DNA from: a phage
Assembly: GCA_036252695.1 (NCBI GenBank)
Contig: GCA_036252695.1_4122.1
Reading direction: 5' to 3' (one strand)
Length of the DNA: 64,000 nt
The notes beneath the pieces were generated by a model that was not told the DNA's origin, ran no database searches, and saw nothing but the letters and a program-made list of their open reading frames with translations. Below, piece by piece: positions 4,056 through 62,891 of this stretch (position 1 is its first letter; the number at the start of each line of letters is the position of its first letter). Position numbers and translations under genes: made by a program.

Positions 4056-4322
4056 ATGAATATTAAGTATTTTGCGACGCGTGAACAAGCTCGGATCGCC
4101 GCACGCCAGGACGGGGCAACGTTTAAAGATATGGGCGTACAATCGGAACGTGGTAAACGTTGGGCCATTGTAAAGCGTAGTACCGCCAGATCATTACAGT
4201 ACTGGTTAGCGGCCTTAAAAAGTCCCGATAGTGTATCGCGACGAGTGGTAGAAATAAAGCTCGACCGAAAGGGCAACCGCGTGACCGTGTACCGTACTAA
4301 AAAGATTGCAGTACTTGAATAA
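4056..4322 (+). CDS. hypothetical early protein (paralog of 17098..17493)
   Basis: FATREQARI...RKGNRVTVY shared with 17098 gene; upstream promoter has a 13-nt spacer (weak). Confidence 0.6.
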   Translation: MNIKYFATREQARIAARQDGATFKDMGVQSERGKRWAIVKRSTARSLQYWLAALKSPDSVSRRVVEIKLDRKGNRVTVYRTKKIAVLE

Positions 4323-4329
4323 AAAGTAC

Positions 4330-4388
4330 TTGCAAACTATGTTTAATGGCGTATAATGTTTTACATCGAGAGCGGGAACACTTCCCGC
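4330..4388 (+). promoter_or_regulatory. sigma70 promoter + 5' stem-loop cassette
   Basis: -35 TTGCAA 4330-4335, -10 TATAAT 4352-4357, hairpin gcgggaacacttcccgc. Confidence 0.75.
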
Positions 4389-4409
4389 CTATAACCTGGA
4401 GTAATAAAA

Positions 4410-4640
4410 ATGACTAATATGTATATGACTGAAGTTAAAACTGTAAAAGATACTACCACGAATAAAACTACTTACTTACAGCGGATCTGCGGTGTATGGC
4501 AACGTATCAGCAAATCAAAGTACTATAAATTAACATCATATGCAAACCGTTCGGATTCATTCAGTACTGAAATAAAAGGTAATAAAGTACACCAATACGG
4601 CACTTATTATTATTATAGCCTGGACGCGATTGCAGTATAA
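4410..4640 (+). CDS. hypothetical early protein
   Basis: RBS ctggagt; ORF track. Confidence 0.6.
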   Translation: MTNMYMTEVKTVKDTTTNKTTYLQRICGVWQRISKSKYYKLTSYANRSDSFSTEIKGNKVHQYGTYYYYSLDAIAV

Positions 4641-4887
4641 GCAGTTTACAAATCTTTACAATTGCCGGTATTGACTTATTTTGTCAGTACTGGCATAATG
4701 TATTCATTGGCAGATAAGCCGTAGCCCATAGGGTGCGGGAGTGTATCTATAGAAAAAGTAGTTTAGTATAGTTACAATTGTGCACCCGGTGGGTTAGCTG
4801 TTGTCATGGGGTATATTATGCCAGTACTTGATAATGCTGTCAATACTTTTTTAATATTCAGTACTGAAAACTATTTTTAAAAAGTAC

Positions 4888-4915
4888 TTGCAAACTATGT
4901 TTAAAGGCGTATAAT
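4888..4915 (+). promoter_or_regulatory. sigma70 promoter (upstream of conserved 80-nt leader)
   Basis: -35 TTGCAA 4888-4893, -10 TATAAT 4910-4915. Confidence 0.65.
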
Positions 4916-4921
4916 GTTTTA

Positions 4922-5000
4922 CATCAGGACGGGGAACGAAATAAGTAACTTCCCGTTAAGTAGCCCAGGAGTAAGGCACACGAAAAACTCCCCTGATAAA
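4922..5000 (+). ncRNA. candidate small RNA / structured leader, copy 1
   Basis: ~80 nt between two tandem promoters; near-identical copy at 15897-15976; no ORF. Confidence 0.25.
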
Positions 5001-5005
5001 ATAGT

Positions 5006-5035
5006 TTGACAAATGTTTTTTTAAAAGCGTATAAT
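5006..5035 (+). promoter_or_regulatory. sigma70 promoter
   Basis: -35 TTGACA 5006-5011, -10 TATAAT 5030-5035. Confidence 0.65.
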
Positions 5036-5067
5036 ACTTACATCAACTACTGAATGAGGGTTACAAA

Positions 5068-5679
5068 ATGAAAACTATCACTACTACTACTTATGTTATG
5101 GATTTTTCTGAATTGAACGCAGAACAAAAAACGTCAGCTATCGAACTGGTTCGGGATCGTGAGCGTTCATGCGGTGATTATTTCTTTTCTGAGGGCGTAT
5201 ACGAATACTATAAAGAAACAATTTTGCCGGAGTATGGCATTGATGACGCTGATTTGCAATTCAGTGGTTTTTGGTCGCAAGGTGACGGTGCATCAATTAG
5301 TACTGACCACGTTGACGCAGTGAAGTTTTTACGTAAGGTAAGAGCATTAACTAAGTATCGCTCAATCCGGCACCTGCTGAATGAAGATGATTTGGCGATG
5401 AGTGTAAAGCGTTATCACTACCACTACTCGCATGAGAATACTGTAAGCGGGTACATTGAATCGGCTTACACTGATTTAACCGCAAAACAAGAAACGTTAG
5501 TTAATGAGCTTGAGGAACTACTCACTGACACTATTCGTGAATTGTCCCGCAAGTTGTACCGTGATTTAGAGAATGCATATGAGGATCAATTCACTACTGA
5601 AAACATTACGGCACTGATTGAGGGTAACGAATATCAATTCAATGTTATTGATGGCGTAGTAGAATCAATCGAATATTAA
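5068..5679 (+). CDS. hypothetical acidic protein (203 aa)
   Basis: RBS gaggg; ORF track. Confidence 0.7.
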   Translation: MKTITTTTYVMDFSELNAEQKTSAIELVRDRERSCGDYFFSEGVYEYYKETILPEYGIDDADLQFSGFWSQGDGASISTDHVDAVKFLRKVRALTKYRSIRHLLNEDDLAMSVKRYHYHYSHENTVSGYIESAYTDLTAKQETLVNELEELLTDTIRELSRKLYRDLENAYEDQFTTENITALIEGNEYQFNVIDGVVESIEY

Positions 5680-5691
5680 TTTAAAAAGTAC

Positions 5692-5751
5692 TTGCAAACT
5701 AAGTTTAAAAGCGTATAATACTTTATATCGAGGCGGGGAGTGGTTCCCCGC
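5692..5751 (+). promoter_or_regulatory. sigma70 promoter + 5' stem-loop cassette
   Basis: -35 TTGCAA 5692-5697, -10 TATAAT 5714-5719, hairpin gcggggagtggttccccgc 5733-5751. Confidence 0.75.
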
Positions 5752-5769
5752 TCAAACGAGGATTTAAAA

Positions 5770-6009
5770 ATGGCTAGTACTAAAACTTACAACGGACACA
5801 AAAACAAAACTCATTGGAATGTAAGCCTTTGGATTAATAACGGTGAGTCATTGTATCGGCTTGCTCAAAGTTGCATCGCACAAAGTAGAACTAAAGATAT
5901 TGCAGCGGAATGTATGTACCGCAGATTAAAAGCCAACGGTACTACTACAACGCCGGACGGCTTTAAGTATAGCACTACTGCGATCCGTGCTGCAATGGTT
6001 GGAATGTAA
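5770..6009 (+). CDS. hypothetical early protein (paralog of 3728..3967)
   Basis: RBS gagga; identical C-terminal 19 aa to 3728 gene. Confidence 0.7.
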   Translation: MASTKTYNGHKNKTHWNVSLWINNGESLYRLAQSCIAQSRTKDIAAECMYRRLKANGTTTTPDGFKYSTTAIRAAMVGM

Positions 6010-6067
6010 TATTCAGTACTGTAACAATGGCGGGGAATGGTTCCCGCCTTTATTGAGGGTTTATCTA

Positions 6068-6328
6068 ATGAGTAAAGTAATTAACTATACAGTACTAAGC
6101 AAGTCATTATCTATCAGTCATTGCACCGATGGTTATTGGCTATTTGATGAAACGCGTGGCATGAATTTAGCTATGCGTGCAAAAACTGCTGAGGCGGCGT
6201 ATATTCAAGCACTGGAATACTACCAGGAACGTTTAAAGGAAGTAGAAGAAGATTATAAAAGCCTCAAAGCGAAAGTAGATCATTTCGTCGGTCAATTCAT
6301 CGAGGAAGACGACGACAAACAATATTGA
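6068..6328 (+). CDS. hypothetical early protein
   Basis: RBS tgagggt before ATG 6068; hairpin ggcggggaatggttcccgcc 6029-6048 upstream. Confidence 0.55.
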   Translation: MSKVINYTVLSKSLSISHCTDGYWLFDETRGMNLAMRAKTAEAAYIQALEYYQERLKEVEEDYKSLKAKVDHFVGQFIEEDDDKQY

Positions 6329-6879: not shown

Positions 6880-7137
6880 ATGCTTGAACAAATCAAATCA
6901 ACGTCTGCGAATGTAACGGGAACGGTAGCACACTTTACTAGTGATGAATCGCGGGGCGTTCCCTATTGTGCTGTACATGTAAACACTGAGGGTAACTACT
7001 GGTTTACGGTTTACGGATCATATTCATTTGGACGGCCAGGGCATCAAAAAATTCTGGATAAAGTACAACCAACGGGTAAAAATATCACTGCCGAAATGTT
7101 TTATAAAAATCATAAAGTACTTGATAATAGTTTTTAG
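6880..7137 (+). CDS. hypothetical early protein
   Basis: RBS aaggaa; ORF track. Confidence 0.65.
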   Translation: MLEQIKSTSANVTGTVAHFTSDESRGVPYCAVHVNTEGNYWFTVYGSYSFGRPGHQKILDKVQPTGKNITAEMFYKNHKVLDNSF

Positions 7138-7180
7138 TACTGTATAATATTTTACATCGCAAGGGGGAGCGGTTCCCCCT
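7121..7180 (+). promoter_or_regulatory. sigma70 promoter + 5' stem-loop cassette
   Basis: -35 TTGATA 7121-7126, -10 TATAAT 7143-7148, hairpin agggggagcggttccccct. Confidence 0.7.
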
Positions 7181-7199
7181 GGTAACTAAGGATAATCAA

Positions 7200-7499
7200 A
7201 TGAAAATTGCAATCATCGCCCTGGCTTTATCTGTTTCCTCTTTCGCTGTTAATGCGTCATTAGATGTAAGTAGTGAAAAATTCATTCAGTGCACTGTTGC
7301 AATGACCGATGAAAGAACTGGCGAGATTGTATTAAAGGATTTAGAGATCCAGCCAGAAGCATTTAAAAACGGGCCGTTCCATGAAGAAGACGAAAAAGGT
7401 AGCACGACAATTTATTACGATGCAAGTACTAAACGCGGTTCGGTCACTGTTATGGATACTGAGAAAGTAACTCATACTGGCGTTATTAATTGCCGTTGA
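7200..7499 (+). CDS. putative secreted/periplasmic protein with N-terminal signal peptide
   Basis: N-term MKIAIIALALSVSSFAVNA is signal-peptide-like (hydrophobic core, AxA-type cleavage site). Confidence 0.65.
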   Translation: MKIAIIALALSVSSFAVNASLDVSSEKFIQCTVAMTDERTGEIVLKDLEIQPEAFKNGPFHEEDEKGSTTIYYDASTKRGSVTVMDTEKVTHTGVINCR

Positions 7500-7520
7500 T
7501 AGATACTACGGGGTAACATC

Positions 7521-7751
7521 ATGACTAAGCGAATTGTTTTACTTAACGAAAGCAGTACTACACAACTACTTAACGCCGTGCATTATGATATTGAAACGAG
7601 CGTTAATCTTATCAGTACTGTAGTACTATTGGACACTGGAAAGGTCGCCAATGATAAAGCGATTGCAGGTATATTAACGGATCTTGAGCCTGGTAGCAGT
7701 GCACCAATAACGTTAAATGGTAAAGTGTTTAATATTTTACTCACTGATTAA
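7521..7751 (+). CDS. hypothetical early protein
   Basis: RBS gggg; ORF track. Confidence 0.55.
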   Translation: MTKRIVLLNESSTTQLLNAVHYDIETSVNLISTVVLLDTGKVANDKAIAGILTDLEPGSSAPITLNGKVFNILLTD

Positions 7752-60810: not shown

Positions 60811-61665
60811 ATGAAACTTTATCTAATCGTTGACTACAATAAGGATTATGCTGGTAACTTCACCGAAGATTCGGATGGATATTGCACATCGACTAATGTC
60901 AATGTACGTAGCAGTAGTGCTCATGAACATGAATCTTGTAAAAATCTAAAAGATTTTATCGCATACCGAGCATTTGAAAAGAACTTCTGCCGCAGTAGAT
61001 ATTCGAAGTTTGAGTACCCGTTAATTGATGTTCCTGATGATTTAATGTTCCAGTTAATGCTGACTGGAGTTCAAGATTATGATTACATAGCGTATAATCA
61101 TATTACTAAGAAAATTTATATTGGTACATCATCACATGACACTTCTATGTATGCATCATGCCCAGATGATCGAATGAATGATAGAAAATCATACTATAGT
61201 GGGTCAGTTGGTTTAAATGATTCATTAAATAAAAATTCATTCTTTGAGTATGTTTATGATTACCATCATGAGAAAAAAGAACGTGAAGATTACTGTATAG
61301 CAATTGATAGTACTAATGGTTATGAAGACGTGAAAGAAGCACTTATGCCTTACATTATTGAAAAGTACTACAAAGATTTTCAGTACTGTAGTAATTTTCT
61401 AATCAGAAATTCTATTATAATCGGTCGCCAATCTAGTGCATACTCTCAGTACTACAACGATTCACCAGTAGCATCGGCAAATGAAATGTGTGATATTTTA
61501 CAAATTCCACGTGAAGATATGACATTTATTTTTACGTCTTTTATTGAAGATGATGAGTTGTATATTAAAAATAAACATCGTTTCATGCCAAGCAGGATTG
61601 AGGTTATTCGAAGTTTTAGTGTTGATATACTAACAAATTTCACAGAAAAAACCGAATATAACTGA
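60811..61665 (+). CDS. hypothetical protein (284 aa), possible distant FQ-family relative
   Basis: RBS tctggaga; contains PDDLMFQLMLTG. Confidence 0.6.
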   Translation: MKLYLIVDYNKDYAGNFTEDSDGYCTSTNVNVRSSSAHEHESCKNLKDFIAYRAFEKNFCRSRYSKFEYPLIDVPDDLMFQLMLTGVQDYDYIAYNHITKKIYIGTSSHDTSMYASCPDDRMNDRKSYYSGSVGLNDSLNKNSFFEYVYDYHHEKKEREDYCIAIDSTNGYEDVKEALMPYIIEKYYKDFQYCSNFLIRNSIIIGRQSSAYSQYYNDSPVASANEMCDILQIPREDMTFIFTSFIEDDELYIKNKHRFMPSRIEVIRSFSVDILTNFTEKTEYN

Positions 61666-61694
61666 GACAAATGATAAGTTAATGATATAATATA

Positions 61695-61729
61695 AGGTGA
61701 CAACATAATATGTTAGTCACCTTTTTTTA
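61695..61729 (+). terminator. intrinsic terminator
   Basis: aggtgac...gtcacct hairpin + ttttttt. Confidence 0.8.
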
Positions 61730-62270
61730 ATCCTGAAAGGTTCCCATAAGGAAATGATTAAAAGCCTAATCCACTCGAAAATGTAGAGGGTAGATGAGTA
61801 GTCCTTTCAGTACGAACAGCAGATGAAACCCGTTAGATGATGGCATAGTTTGAACCACTCACGGCAATGCGGCTGTATAAAGAACTCCAATAGGATAAAG
61901 AGAGTTCCTCGATAGACATATAAGGATCGCACCTTACCAATTATCTAAGGGAGATTTCATAAGAAATATGCGGTCGGAATTATACAATATAGTTGCGTCC
62001 AAATTTTGTGAAATCAAATACAAGTACTGGTCATATGGTATTTGTATTATGTGTCGGGATGTTTAAGACCGACGACCGTTGCTACAAGAACCGCGATAGA
62101 GAGAAACAGAGCAACCCGCTTTCGTCTCGTAAGAGAATTCGTGATATGAACTATGTGAAGGCCACCAGCGTCAAATTTTTTTGTTCTTTCCCCTGCGGGG
62201 GGATGAAATATGCTCAAGCAAACCCCGTCAATATTAATTAAAAGAAAATAGTACTTGTGTAGAATTAGAC
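61730..62270. other. GC-richer ORF-poor island with multiple hairpins (function unknown)
   Basis: No RBS-supported ORF; hairpins gtcgggatgtttaagaccgac, cccctgcgggggg, ctgaaagg...cctttcag; composition unlike flanks. Confidence 0.4.
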
Positions 62271-62345
62271 ATGCGTAGCATGATAATTCTACTGATGTTG
62301 ATGCAATCAACGTCACGTATATTCATTGATGTTTCCATAGGAATA

Positions 62346-62891
62346 ATGATGGCATTTATTAGAAAAGAAAAAACTGTTACTTATAAAACTTTGAATTTTG
62401 ATGATTGCATTAATCAATCACAAGACGAAGATATCTTTACTGGATATGTGGTTATTAAAGAAAAAGGATGCATTTCTTATATAAAGGAATTACAAAATGG
62501 AATTGAAGTAACTTCAGTTAAATTACTTCCTACTCAAAAACCAACAATATCAAAAGCCCAGTATGGTAATTATTTTGAAGAAAGATATAGTAATAATTCA
62601 ATAAGTGTTAAGGCTCATATTATTAAAGGAGAACTAGAAGGAGAATATAGAAAATACAACCCACAAGGAAAATGTGTTTGGGTTAAATACTTCAATTCAG
62701 GATATGATGTAACATCTGAAATTATAGAGTTCTTGGGTTTAAAATGTACCCCTGAGACTATTCATGATTACAAGTTCAATACTGAAGAAGAGTTTAATCT
62801 GATGATGCGTTACGGTTCACATTTTAAATTTTTATATGAATATAACATTGACAGTAGTACTTTTGATAAGATAGTACACAACTGTCTCTAA
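62346..62891 (+). CDS. hypothetical protein
   Basis: ORF-track ATG at 62271 lacks an RBS; ATG 62346 has agga upstream; start uncertain. Confidence 0.4.
   Translation: MMAFIRKEKTVTYKTLNFDDCINQSQDEDIFTGYVVIKEKGCISYIKELQNGIEVTSVKLLPTQKPTISKAQYGNYFEERYSNNSISVKAHIIKGELEGEYRKYNPQGKCVWVKYFNSGYDVTSEIIEFLGLKCTPETIHDYKFNTEEEFNLMMRYGSHFKFLYEYNIDSSTFDKIVHNCL

Follow-up and report, generated by a model that had tools for sequence, protein, structure and literature searches.

Evidence for a structured RNA gene shared by jumbo phages and chromosomal islands of bacteria

The window, a stretch of 64,000 nt, belongs to an Asteriusvirus jumbo coliphage and is 100% identical to phages G17 and Sharanji across the 1.2 kb compared. 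Positions 61730-62270 (541 nt) had been described in a sequence-only reading as a GC-richer, ORF-poor patch of roughly 0.5 kb, and this description was confirmed: the segment has a GC content of 39.9%, against 29.6% upstream, 29.4% downstream and a window mean of 34.2%, and it contains no conserved ORF. One further 541-nt stretch of comparable GC richness was found in the last 40 kb of the window. The gap of about 540 bp with no RBS-supported ORF is non-coding as proposed, but its real extent is longer, running from 61666 to 62348 (about 40% GC between flanks of 29.5%, likewise with no conserved ORF), and the next RBS-bearing gene begins at 62349 in the G17 annotation and not at 62271. The conserved element within the gap extends a little beyond 62270, with a promoter-like motif and hairpins reaching to approximately 62292. 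Most phage records leave the gap unannotated, and a few call short hypothetical ORFs. No second copy of the element was detected within the 64,000-nt window by blastn or profile HMM, and no inflection of GC skew was seen at the locus.

The two overlapping ORFs noted previously do exist, one on the + strand at 61993-62241 (TTG start, 82 aa) and the other on the - strand at 62047-62316 (GTG start, 89 aa). Both lack an RBS and neither frame is conserved, the homologous segments being open in only 1/50 and 3/50 homologues, respectively, whose longest ORF has a median length of 61 aa. The Rfam scan that had been suggested as a check was run against Rfam 15 and no family matches the element at gathering score; the whole window returned no match, including to GOLLD, ROOL, OLE, raiA, HEARO, group I and group II introns, RNase P, tmRNA, 6S and RNA I, and the same scan over 107 kb of phage and bacterial loci bearing other copies returned only host SRP RNA. 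With permissive cut-offs (E of at most 10 or 1), the Rfam scans produced only scattered chance matches outside the element or at its edge, and ARAGORN found no tRNA or tmRNA. The scan is empty because the RNA family is absent from Rfam, and no prior description of the RNA was found in the jumbo-phage, structured-RNA or satellite literature. On comparative sequence grounds, 61664-62232 is a putatively independent + strand transcription unit for an undescribed structured ncRNA of ~0.5 kb, with a predicted promoter, start and 3' end.

To define the structure, 50 non-redundant homologues (<94% identity) were used as a covariation set, from about 75 unique sequences overall. RNAalifold applied to the whole alignment, with or without constraints, gave messy results because the pseudoknots conflict, and a covariation-driven helix search was therefore used instead. 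In the resulting 17-helix model, which includes two pseudoknots, 89.7% of 4761 cells are paired, compared with 39-44% when the 3' partners are slid, and compensatory changes are present at 73 of the 102 pairs, compared with 35-46 when slid. The covariation score is 0.424, against 0.07-0.11 for slid partners and 0.16 for shuffled alignments, and 0/500 shuffles scored as high. The helices, at least 17 in number, are joined by approximately ten nearly invariant junction sequences. Some pairs are mostly G-U, and G-U outnumbers A-C by 314 to 183, although the strand asymmetry that arises from G-U pairs is modest, with 89.7% paired on the + strand and 87.0% on the - strand. Several stable hairpins had been noted in the segment, and the helices are indeed conserved, as demonstrated by covariation, but the stability of the single-sequence fold is unremarkable (MFE -124.3 kcal/mol, z = -1.22). 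Support for the structure comes from covariation and not from thermodynamics.

The predicted promoter of the RNA gene lies at 61664..61691 (+) and consists of a -35-like GAGACA at 61664-61669, a spacer of 13 nt and the extended -10 TGATATAAT at 61683-61691, with a predicted transcription start at around 61697-61699. This GAGACA-N13-TGATATAAT arrangement was the best match in the promoter scan, and the motif G[GA][GA]AC[A/G]-N13-TGnTATAAT precedes 27/27 first-round copies and 12 A-type orthologues. Phage 121Q possesses 20 sites of this class, all on the + strand, where 0.7 would be expected; the SSB, primase, exonuclease and late-sigma genes have upstream sites of this class too. The -35 element agrees with the 'TGAAACG' promoter class of CBB and GAP32 (PMC5259590), and the promoter of the element is putatively of the phage 'middle-class' type. 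At 61694..61729 (+) lies the hairpin AAGGTGAC..GTCACCTT followed by T7, which carries a terminator annotation in G17. The terminator previously reported at 61695-61729 is therefore real, but it does not simply close the upstream gene: since it lies downstream of the conserved promoter, it is both the 3' end of that gene, as its intrinsic terminator, and the 5'-terminal stem-loop of the predicted transcript. The order of promoter, hairpin with U-run and P1 is preserved in 12 A-type orthologues despite unrelated hairpin sequences.

The 5' domain of the RNA (61733..61810, +) is modelled as a three-way junction of P1 (61733-40/61803-10), P1a (61741-44/61750-53) and P1b (61772-76/61786-90), and contains conserved CGAAAAUGUAG and GAUGAG blocks; double changes are seen at 7/8 pairs of P1 and 3/5 pairs of P1b. 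The P2 domain follows at 61816..61876 (+) and comprises P2 (61816-20/61872-76), which is 100% paired with 3/5 pairs covarying, P2a (CCGU/ACGG, 61830-33/61861-64) and the P2b arm (61836-43/61855-60), together with the invariant blocks GAAACCCGUUAG and CACGGCAAUGCGGC. A UUCG tetraloop takes the place of the P2b arm in homologues L017, L011 and L123. The P3/P4 region (61882..61953, +) holds P3 (61882-87/61902-07; 6/6 pairs covarying), the conserved junction CUCGAUAGACAUAUA and P4 (61921-25/61932-36; 3/5 covarying), after which comes the invariant junction CUAAGGGAG at 61945-61953 (+). P6, at 61953..62015 (+), is an arm of variable length, from ~15 to >100 nt among homologues, with the stem GAUUUCA/UGAAAUC (61953-59/62009-15) and, at its tip, the conserved module UACAAUAUAGUUGCGUCCAAAUUUUG (61983-62008, +). 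This module sits at the tip of either P6 or P11, and at both in copy D of 121Q. The P6 stem is recovered by the single-sequence fold but was excluded from the formal pair count because the arm aligns poorly.

P7 (62017..62048, +) is an 11-bp hairpin in which 11/11 pairs covary, and its loop (62030-62036) pairs with 62144-62150 to form pseudoknot PK1, in which 100% of cells are paired and 7/7 pairs covary. The pseudoknotted core (62053..62150, +) contains the most conserved block of the RNA, GAUAGAGAGAAACAGAGCAACCCGCUUUCG, and is built from P8 (62053-57/62069-73; 93% paired, 5/5 covarying), the second pseudoknot PK2 (GUUGC/GCAAC, 62078-82/62111-15; 100% paired, 3/5 covarying), P9 (62092-96/62139-43; 99.2% paired, 5/5 covarying), P10 (GAGAG/CUUUC, 62099-103/62119-23), P11 (62125-28/62133-36) with a GUAA tetraloop, and the 3' strand of PK1 (62144-50). 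P10 is 100% paired and includes the variants GCGAG/CUUGC and GGAAG/CUUCC, and P11 is capped by GUAA, GAAA or GCAA depending on the copy, all of which are GNRA loops.

Downstream of the core, the P12 region (62157..62182, +) consists of a hairpin (62157-61/62168-72) that is degenerate in the window copy, the sequence ..CACCAGCGUCAAA and a U7 tract at 62176-62182. A terminator-like hairpin follows P12 in about half of the homologues and is absent from 22/50 copies, including that of the window. P13 (62184..62232, +) is a C-run/G-run hairpin (62184-93/62197-207) followed by the conserved 3' tail CAAACCCCGUCAAU (62219-62232), and P13 and the tail region are found in 50/50 aligned copies; C-G pairs in P13 alternate with U-G, which argues for an RNA-level hairpin on the + strand. 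The sequence ..CACCAGCGUCAAA and the tail are the first and second copies of a duplicated 12-nt motif, A-Y-C-A-n-C-G-W-C-A-R, whose identity co-varies inside each copy of the element and differs between the paralogues of one genome. An extension of P12 was considered as an account of this motif, but the flanking positions were left unexplained, and no complementary partner for the tail was found. A further conserved unit lies at 62238..62292 (+), with a promoter-like TTAAAA (62238-43), 16 nt and TAGAAT (62260-65), and an inverted repeat GTAGAATTA/TAATTCTAC (62259-67/62284-92) around the hairpin CATGC-GTA-GCATG (62270-82); this unit probably supplies the following operon with its promoter and 5' leader. 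In both phage and bacterial-island copies, the tail is followed by a T(A)GAATT(G/A)AG motif and hairpins with C-GAA-G or C-GUA-G loops. Several other candidates were discarded: a helix 'H3' (GAUG/CGUU) showed one compensatory change and three violations, pairing of GAUGAG with CUCGUC of the tail showed no covariation, hammerhead and C/D-box look-alikes had the wrong core nucleotides and no covariation, and the GGA motifs in loops that might have marked a CsrA sponge are not conserved.

The RNA is present in four copies per genome in Asteriusvirus and in five in GAP32-, CBB-, BF- and Yen9-04-like jumbo phages, and those of 121Q lie at 90.3, 192.8, 247.5 and 326.7 kb of 348 kb. All copies are co-oriented in every genome seen, and their positions are syntenic across genera. 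The paralogues are ancient and exhibit 65-70% sequence divergence that is compensated in the helices. The element is 96% identical where the surrounding 1.2-kb region is 86% identical, and across genera it retains 66-75% nucleotide identity, whereas the flanking proteins exhibit 26-64% amino-acid identity. The B-type copy lies between minus-strand genes (gp595, baseplate hub) in all genera, and the genes after the A-, C- and D-type copies are on the + strand. No partner protein conserved beside the copies was found; the phage copies have no adjacent recombinase or TnpB/IscB-like gene, and the neighbours differ between paralogues. An RNA that guides or scaffolds a nuclease or recombinase of a mobile element, such as an omega RNA or bridge RNA, was rejected, there being no constant cognate protein neighbour.

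In Enterobacterales, small chromosomal islands that bear an integrase carry a related clade of the RNA. Each of these islands, seen in Serratia, Enterobacter, Silvania and E. coli, has one copy, preceded by a host sigma-70 promoter; they include an island beside ffs in E. coli LR-29-1 and islands of Serratia fonticola GTA-SR07 and Enterobacter chinensis 170198. The island copies lie near CI-like repressors, converging on the cI-like gene, and have a large serine recombinase or a tyrosine integrase as a neighbour. The parts of the islands seen encode an integrase, a CI/Ner-like switch and defence-type cargo (a PDC-M45 candidate), with no structural genes and no recognisable replication gene, and in one island ParB/RepB-like partition genes sit beside the RNA. 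The only proteins common to islands and phage are a DUF4326 domain and an unrelated ADP-ribosylglycohydrolase, neither of which is linked to the RNA.

Two identities had been offered for the gap, a structured RNA and a decayed acquired gene. The latter is contradicted by the lack of any conserved frame and by strong purifying selection without decay. The former has held up, with covariation that includes two pseudoknots, a promoter at each copy, GNRA and UUCG loops, synteny and conservation exceeding that of the flanking genes, and the gap is almost certainly a structured-RNA gene. Few large RNAs with a conserved tertiary-type architecture are known, and RNase P, group I and II introns, tmRNA, OLE, ROOL, GOLLD and raiA each opened a field or remain a prominent question. 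The comparative support in the present case, including two covariation-proven pseudoknots, is unusually clean, and the RNA is present in cultivable coliphages that infect E. coli K-12 (G17, 121Q, phAPEC6 and PBECO4), which makes it directly testable. 'Gaps' in jumbo-phage annotation hide genes that are missed by protein callers and Rfam alike.

The favoured explanation, with a probability of roughly 0.5, is that selection acts on a compactly folded RNA that works in trans, most probably either within an RNA-protein complex or as a decoy for a protein or ligand. Such an RNA would be made in quantity when the replication genes switch on, the several copies would supply dosage, and their helix-compensated divergence may avoid deletions by the phage recombination system. 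The RNA occurs both in lytic jumbo phages and in integrative islands, and its target would therefore be something important to both, a function either of the host or of a rival mobile element. A stand-alone gene is favoured over a leader by the B-type copy and by the island copies, which lie between minus-strand genes and converge on a cI-like gene, respectively. RNAs that function as compact 3D objects, such as RNase P, group I introns, ROOL and GOLLD, characteristically combine many invariant junctions with tetraloops and pseudoknots. Like ROOL and GOLLD, the new RNA falls in the 0.5-0.8 kb size class, is carried by phages and mobile elements as a stand-alone gene with no associated protein, and possesses many helices, pseudoknots, tetraloops and invariant junctions; unlike them, it gives no match to either covariance model. 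ROOL and GOLLD are single copies near tRNA genes, whereas the new RNA is multi-copy per genome, and the hosts differ (Enterobacterales, Xanthomonas). Both are large, ornate ncRNAs of phages and prophages, and cryo-EM has shown them to form RNA-only cages (PMC12286853).

A second likeness is to PA5oct, a jumbo myovirus distantly related to the 121Q/RaK2/GAP32 group, which also has four ORF-less + strand RNAs. These RNAs, ncRNA001-004, were defined by RNA-seq and measure 236-619 nt, and two of them reach ~5% of phage reads (PMC7318152). ncRNA004 is flanked by minus-strand genes, as is the B-type copy, and has a C-run/G-run hairpin at its end. The four have not been reported as paralogues, unlike the copies described here, their structure is undescribed, and they show no detectable similarity to the new family (nhmmer E = 5.1), but by analogy the abundance of such ORF-less RNAs may support a trans-acting RNA. 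Weighing against a trans-acting RNA are the lack of a conserved partner protein, the unexplained duplicated motif, the modest strand asymmetry and the unremarkable folding energy. In addition, ancient, position-fixed and co-oriented paralogues suit a role in cis at least as well as they suit dosage. It would also be unusual for a discrete trans-acting RNA that conservation persists beyond the terminator-like hairpin, through P13 and the tail to an AT-rich stretch and further hairpins.

A possible but less likely explanation is that the transcript acts in cis at replication origins, as a structured pre-primer like ColE1 RNA II or the T4 oriF/oriG transcripts. Transcription from the middle-class promoter would be followed by folding, formation of a persistent RNA-DNA hybrid near P13 and the tail, processing and priming of the leading strand. 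The four or five co-oriented copies would then be phage origins, and the island copy would let the enzymes of an infecting jumbo phage or of the host replicate the island. T4 origins use middle-mode promoters, and RNA II has ~500 nt between its promoter and its G-run. The new element is similar in having its own promoter ~0.5 kb before a G-rich 3' region and a structured transcript, and it resembles the T4 origins in its several dispersed copies, whose positions are fixed across genera, and in a promoter class shared with replication genes (SSB, primase and exonuclease). It has, however, no sequence or model similarity to RNA II or oriF/oriG, and a structure this elaborate and this constrained in sequence goes well beyond what priming seems to require. 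An origin would fit with conservation that reaches past the terminator to hairpins and an AT-rich stretch, but the region itself is GC-richer than its flanks and lacks an iteron array. That the duplicated motif varies from paralogue to paralogue in a single genome speaks against a shared initiator protein. No match was found among 72,556 plasmids, no RNA I-family match was obtained on either strand, no conserved antisense promoter was seen in the alignments inspected, GC skew shows no inflection, and the fixed positions are also predicted by plain vertical descent.

The chromosomal islands bear on this origin model as well, since the parts seen carry no recognisable replication gene and one has partition genes. 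Satellites that ride jumbo phages and carry an integrase and defence cargo are documented in Pseudomonas and provide a precedent (PMC12595487, PMC12772148). A more specific and decidedly doubtful proposal is that the RNA is the cis 'handle' of jumbo-phage replication, possibly also of packaging, and that the islands are satellites of RaK2-like phages that present the origin RNA of their helper and are thereby amplified and transferred. The multi-copy RNA, the promoter class shared with replication genes and the integrase-bearing defence islands connect RNA structural biology with the questions of how jumbo phages begin replication and whether satellites of theirs exist in Enterobacterales. If the origin and satellite model were true, giant phages would have a family of origins defined by an RNA, and satellites would have a hijacking mechanism not described before.

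A cis-regulatory leader, in which a long 5' attenuator or a put-like antiterminator controls whether transcription proceeds past the internal terminator hairpin to P13, the tail and the operon beyond, is improbable. Like HK022 put and other processive-antitermination RNAs, the element is structured, lies just downstream of a phage promoter and has several copies heading transcription units; the A-, C- and D-type copies have + strand genes after them, approximately half of the copies have a terminator-like hairpin before a still-conserved P13, and the 5' strand of P12 could pair alternatively with either copy of the duplicated motif. However, put RNAs are ~70-120 nt and the new RNA is ~500 nt, and to our knowledge no leader reaches its size and complexity. 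The B-type and island copies are not followed by an operon in their own direction on which to act, the former meeting minus-strand genes in every genus, the terminator hairpin is missing from the window copy among others, and the downstream genes have a separate promoter-like site after the tail.

A DNA-level repeat with no RNA product, be it an array bound by proteins, a site for packaging or partition, or a mobile repeat scattered over the genome, is very improbable, even though the element is multi-copy and dispersed and carries a duplicated 12-nt motif of co-varying identity. Long-range compensatory pairing and pseudoknots would be meaningless in duplex DNA, tetraloops and G-U pairs are strand-specific, and a promoter is present at every copy. 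Synteny of the loci across genera shows that the copies do not move. As for packaging, a 22-kb terminal repeat is predicted for the CBB genome (PMC5259590), and if the CBB ends are fixed, as such a repeat suggests, packaging would need one site and not five. A pseudogene remnant or a gene for a small protein can practically be dismissed, for although the 82-aa and 89-aa ORFs are present and a few GenBank records call short hypothetical proteins, the frames are closed in nearly all homologues and lack an RBS, the many indels have lengths other than multiples of three, substitutions in the helices are compensatory, and purifying selection at the nucleotide level exceeds that on the neighbouring genes.

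The 1.2 kb around the GC-richer, ORF-poor island matches the Escherichia phages vB_EcoM_G17 and Sharanji at 100% identity and 121Q at 99%; all three are Asteriusvirus jumbo myoviruses with genomes of ~350 kb. The compositional contrast described in the sequence-only reading was borne out, with 39.9% GC at 61730-62270 versus 29.5% in each flank, and the terminator placed before the island was recovered as a hairpin with a T7 run at 61694-61729 that carries a terminator annotation in G17. The ORF-poor gap is also real, but its extent had to be redrawn: since the next RBS-bearing gene in the G17 annotation begins at 62349, the true gap is 61666-62348, and it is left unannotated in most GenBank records. 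Conservation of the island exceeds that of the surrounding sequence: in the WPEC5/Ecwhy_1 group it is 96% identical, compared with 86% for the 1.2-kb region. The two overlapping ORFs (plus strand, 61993-62241; minus strand, 62047-62316) are both present in the window; however, the homologous segments are open in just 1/50 and 3/50 homologues, and a protein-coding reading was rejected. The decayed acquired gene that had been proposed is effectively excluded, as is a DNA-only repeat. The other proposal, a structured RNA, is upheld by a fold backed by covariation with two pseudoknots: the island holds a gene for a structured RNA, preceded by a predicted promoter of its own.

A nucleotide search with the island alone returned homologues over ~480 nt, at 66-75% nucleotide identity, in distant RaK2-like jumbo phages, among them GAP32, CBB, BF, fHe-Yen9-04, 7t3/Munch, the Erwinia pEa_SNUABM phages and Xanthomonas XbC2/XaC1, with 4-5 matches in each record. 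Further homologues were gathered by IUPAC pattern scans of IMG/VR (three scans), JGI/ENA metagenomes and GTDB genomes (one scan each), giving 127 loci in which a profile HMM delimited 129 elements, 75 of them unique and full-length and 47 of these below 94% identity. No copy matches a family in Rfam 15, no prior description of the RNA was found in the literature, and among phages it was not found outside 62 jumbo-phage records.

Alignments of the homologues contain near-invariant blocks, including GAAACCCGUUAG, CACGGCAAUGCGGC, GAUAGACAUAUAAGG, CUAAGGGAG, CGACCGUUGC, GAUAGAGAGAAACAGAGCAACCCGCUUUCG, CCCCUGCGGGGGGAUGAAA and CAAAUCUCGUCAG, interspersed with arms whose sequence and length differ between homologues but whose pairing is retained. 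A helix search driven by covariation produced a 17-helix model, which was placed on a 50-sequence MAFFT alignment. Standard pairs occupy 89.7% of 4761 cells, and sliding the 3' partners by 1-3 columns lowers this share to 39-44%; compensatory double changes occur in 73 of 102 pairs, versus 35-46 when slid; and the covariation score is 0.424, versus 0.07-0.11 when slid and 0.16 when shuffled, with none of 500 shuffles as high. Two helices are pseudoknots, because both cross others: PK1 joins the P7 hairpin loop to a strand ~110 nt downstream, with 7/7 pairs covarying and 100% of cells paired, and PK2 joins GUUGC to GCAAC in the P10 hairpin loop and is likewise 100% paired. The tetraloop capping P11 is GUAA, GAAA or GCAA according to copy, CCG-UUCG-CGG stands in for arm P2b in three sequences, and the tip of P6 or of P11, or of both in copy D of 121Q, bears a conserved module, UACAAUAUAGAUCCGUCCAAAAUU. 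The window copy has a minimum free energy of -124.3 kcal/mol (z = -1.22), and support for the structure is comparative, not thermodynamic.

A G[GA][GA]AC[A/G]-N13-TGnTATAAT site lies upstream of every copy (27 first-round copies and 12 A-type orthologues, those of the window copy), and the site at 61664-61691 is the top match of the promoter scan in the window. The 121Q genome possesses 20 sites of the G[GA][GA]A[CT]N-N13-TGnTATAAT class, on the plus strand only, versus 0.7 expected by shuffling; four precede RNA copies, and others precede SSB, primase, exonuclease and late-sigma genes. The -35 element of the RNA gene matches a second promoter class of CBB and GAP32, 'TGAAACG', which is found chiefly ahead of DNA-synthesis genes (PMC5259590). 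Because this element is conserved and non-sigma-70, the promoter class suggests a phage-encoded specificity factor. In A-type copies, including that of the window, the promoter follows the stop codon of the upstream gene and precedes the terminator hairpin, so that transcription is predicted to begin at the base of the hairpin; 12 orthologues, with hairpins of unrelated sequence, have the same arrangement. The plus strand is supported by tetraloops that are meaningful on that strand only, by a terminator hairpin and U-run that about half of the copies have 3' of P12, by positions that are predominantly G-U, and by totals in which G-U outnumbers A-C (314 vs 183).

The 121Q genome carries four copies, all on the plus strand, at 90.3, 192.8 (copy A, that of the window), 247.5 and 326.7 kb, with pairwise identities of 70-74%; no further copy was found in the 64-kb window. 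All copies within each genome are co-oriented, and paralogues cluster across genera, so the duplications are older than the genera. The A-type locus has the constant order gp415-like, RNA, gp416-like, Dam methylase, gp418-like, and the B-type locus the constant order SbcC, endonuclease VII (minus), RNA (plus), gp595 (minus), baseplate hub (minus). The loci are syntenic, not mobile, and the flanking proteins share just 26-64% identity while the RNA retains 66-75% nucleotide identity. An ADP-ribosylglycohydrolase-like gene lies directly downstream of the RNA in one lineage of paralogues, from BF-like phages and metagenomic contigs related to them (loci L028, at 6897-7730, L019, L025, L020 and L081).

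Each element contains a 12-nt motif, A-Y-C-A-n-C-G-W-C-A-R, twice, on the 3' side of P12 and in the tail; in the window these are CACCAGCGTCAAA at 62163-62175 and AAACCCCGTCAAT at 62220-62232. Within an element the two motif copies change in step, also when paralogues from a single genome are compared, and across homologues their identity follows the RNA copy, not the genome. A complementary partner for the motif was looked for and not found. In the half of the copies that have the terminator hairpin, conserved structure at the RNA level continues 3' of it. A conserved unit beyond the tail, at 62238-62292 in the window, also follows all of the other copies (for example L130, L133 and L024) and is common to phage and bacterial copies. 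It comprises an AT-rich stretch followed by a promoter-like 'T(A)GAATT(G/A)AG' (TTAAAA at 62238-62243 and TAGAAT at 62260-62265 in the window), a recurring GAACGNAGTGA motif, and hairpins whose loops are C-GAA-G or C-GUA-G (CATGC-GTA-GCATG at 62270-62282, within an inverted repeat at 62259-67/62284-92). The unit may represent either a promoter plus 5' leader or a further small RNA.

Bacterial chromosomes also carry the RNA. The GTDB matches (L128-L135) include Serratia fonticola (a complete chromosome), Serratia sp., Enterobacter chinensis, Silvania hatchlandensis, Buttiauxella and Enterobacteriaceae MAGs, and numerous metagenomic contigs are of the same kind. Here the RNA is single-copy, lacks the 5' strand of P1, is preceded by a sigma-70 extended -10 promoter, and lies directly downstream of a large serine recombinase or tyrosine integrase, convergent with a CI-like repressor (HTH and S24 peptidase) that is followed by a Ner-like gene. 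It is present in 2 of 5,426 complete E. coli genomes; in strain LR-29-1 (L136; NZ_AP027515, ~3,473,000-3,484,000) it is unannotated, in a ~10-kb island that adjoins ffs and contains integrase fragments, a resolvase and the PADLOC candidate defence system PDC-M45. A full-length copy on a 2.8-kb contig binned as Clostridium sp. UBA10317 (L134; DPOH01000171.1) is probably a binning artefact, not a true Firmicute occurrence. The RNA-bearing islands, which are small and integrative and have a CI/Ner-like switch, may be satellites of RaK2-like jumbo phages; in Pseudomonas, a jumbo phage transduces integrase-plus-defence islands, in work that mentions no RNA (PMC12595487, PMC12772148).

The element represents a new class of large structured RNAs, found in a system that is amenable to experiments. 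With a probability of roughly 0.5, it is a compactly folded, trans-acting RNA that either belongs to an RNA-protein complex or serves as a decoy. This is favoured because its many invariant junctions, two pseudoknots and tetraloops are the architecture of RNAs that work as three-dimensional objects, because it forms a unit of its own also in the B-type and island copies, which have no co-directional gene behind them, and because PA5oct, a distant relative, accumulates ORF-less plus-strand RNAs. Several diverged copies would provide dosage without recombination between direct repeats. The main rival, a cis-acting pre-primer like RNA II or a T4 origin, appears unlikely: it would accommodate copies that are dispersed, fixed in position and co-oriented, a promoter class shared with replication genes, the ~500 nt between promoter and G-run, conservation beyond the terminator, and islands with no visible replication gene, but the region is GC-rich and has neither iterons nor an antisense RNA, a plasmid search found the RNA in none, and the fold is more elaborate than priming would seem to require. 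A leader or antiterminator role is very improbable, as it fails for B-type and island copies.

The trans-acting RNA reading draws on PA5oct, where four ORF-less plus-strand RNAs account for up to 5% of phage reads (PMC7318152). No homology between these and the RNA family was detectable by nhmmer. One of them, ncRNA004 (246116-246734), a 619-nt plus-strand transcript established by RNA-seq between minus-strand genes, ends in a C-run/G-run hairpin, UUCCUUCCC-AAAC-GGGGAGGAA, that resembles hairpin P13.

Elsewhere in the window, ~2 kb at about 4100-6100 (121Q 135194-137161) is without an annotated CDS and follows ~17 tandem small ORFs of ~60 aa (121Q genes 249-265); its GC is above that of the rest of the window, and it has neither similarity to the RNA family nor an Rfam match. 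At 2394-2485, a unit of about TAGACGGCTAAACGGC recurs imperfectly in a short tandem array, with periods of 16, 32 and 40 nt and 72-78% matches.
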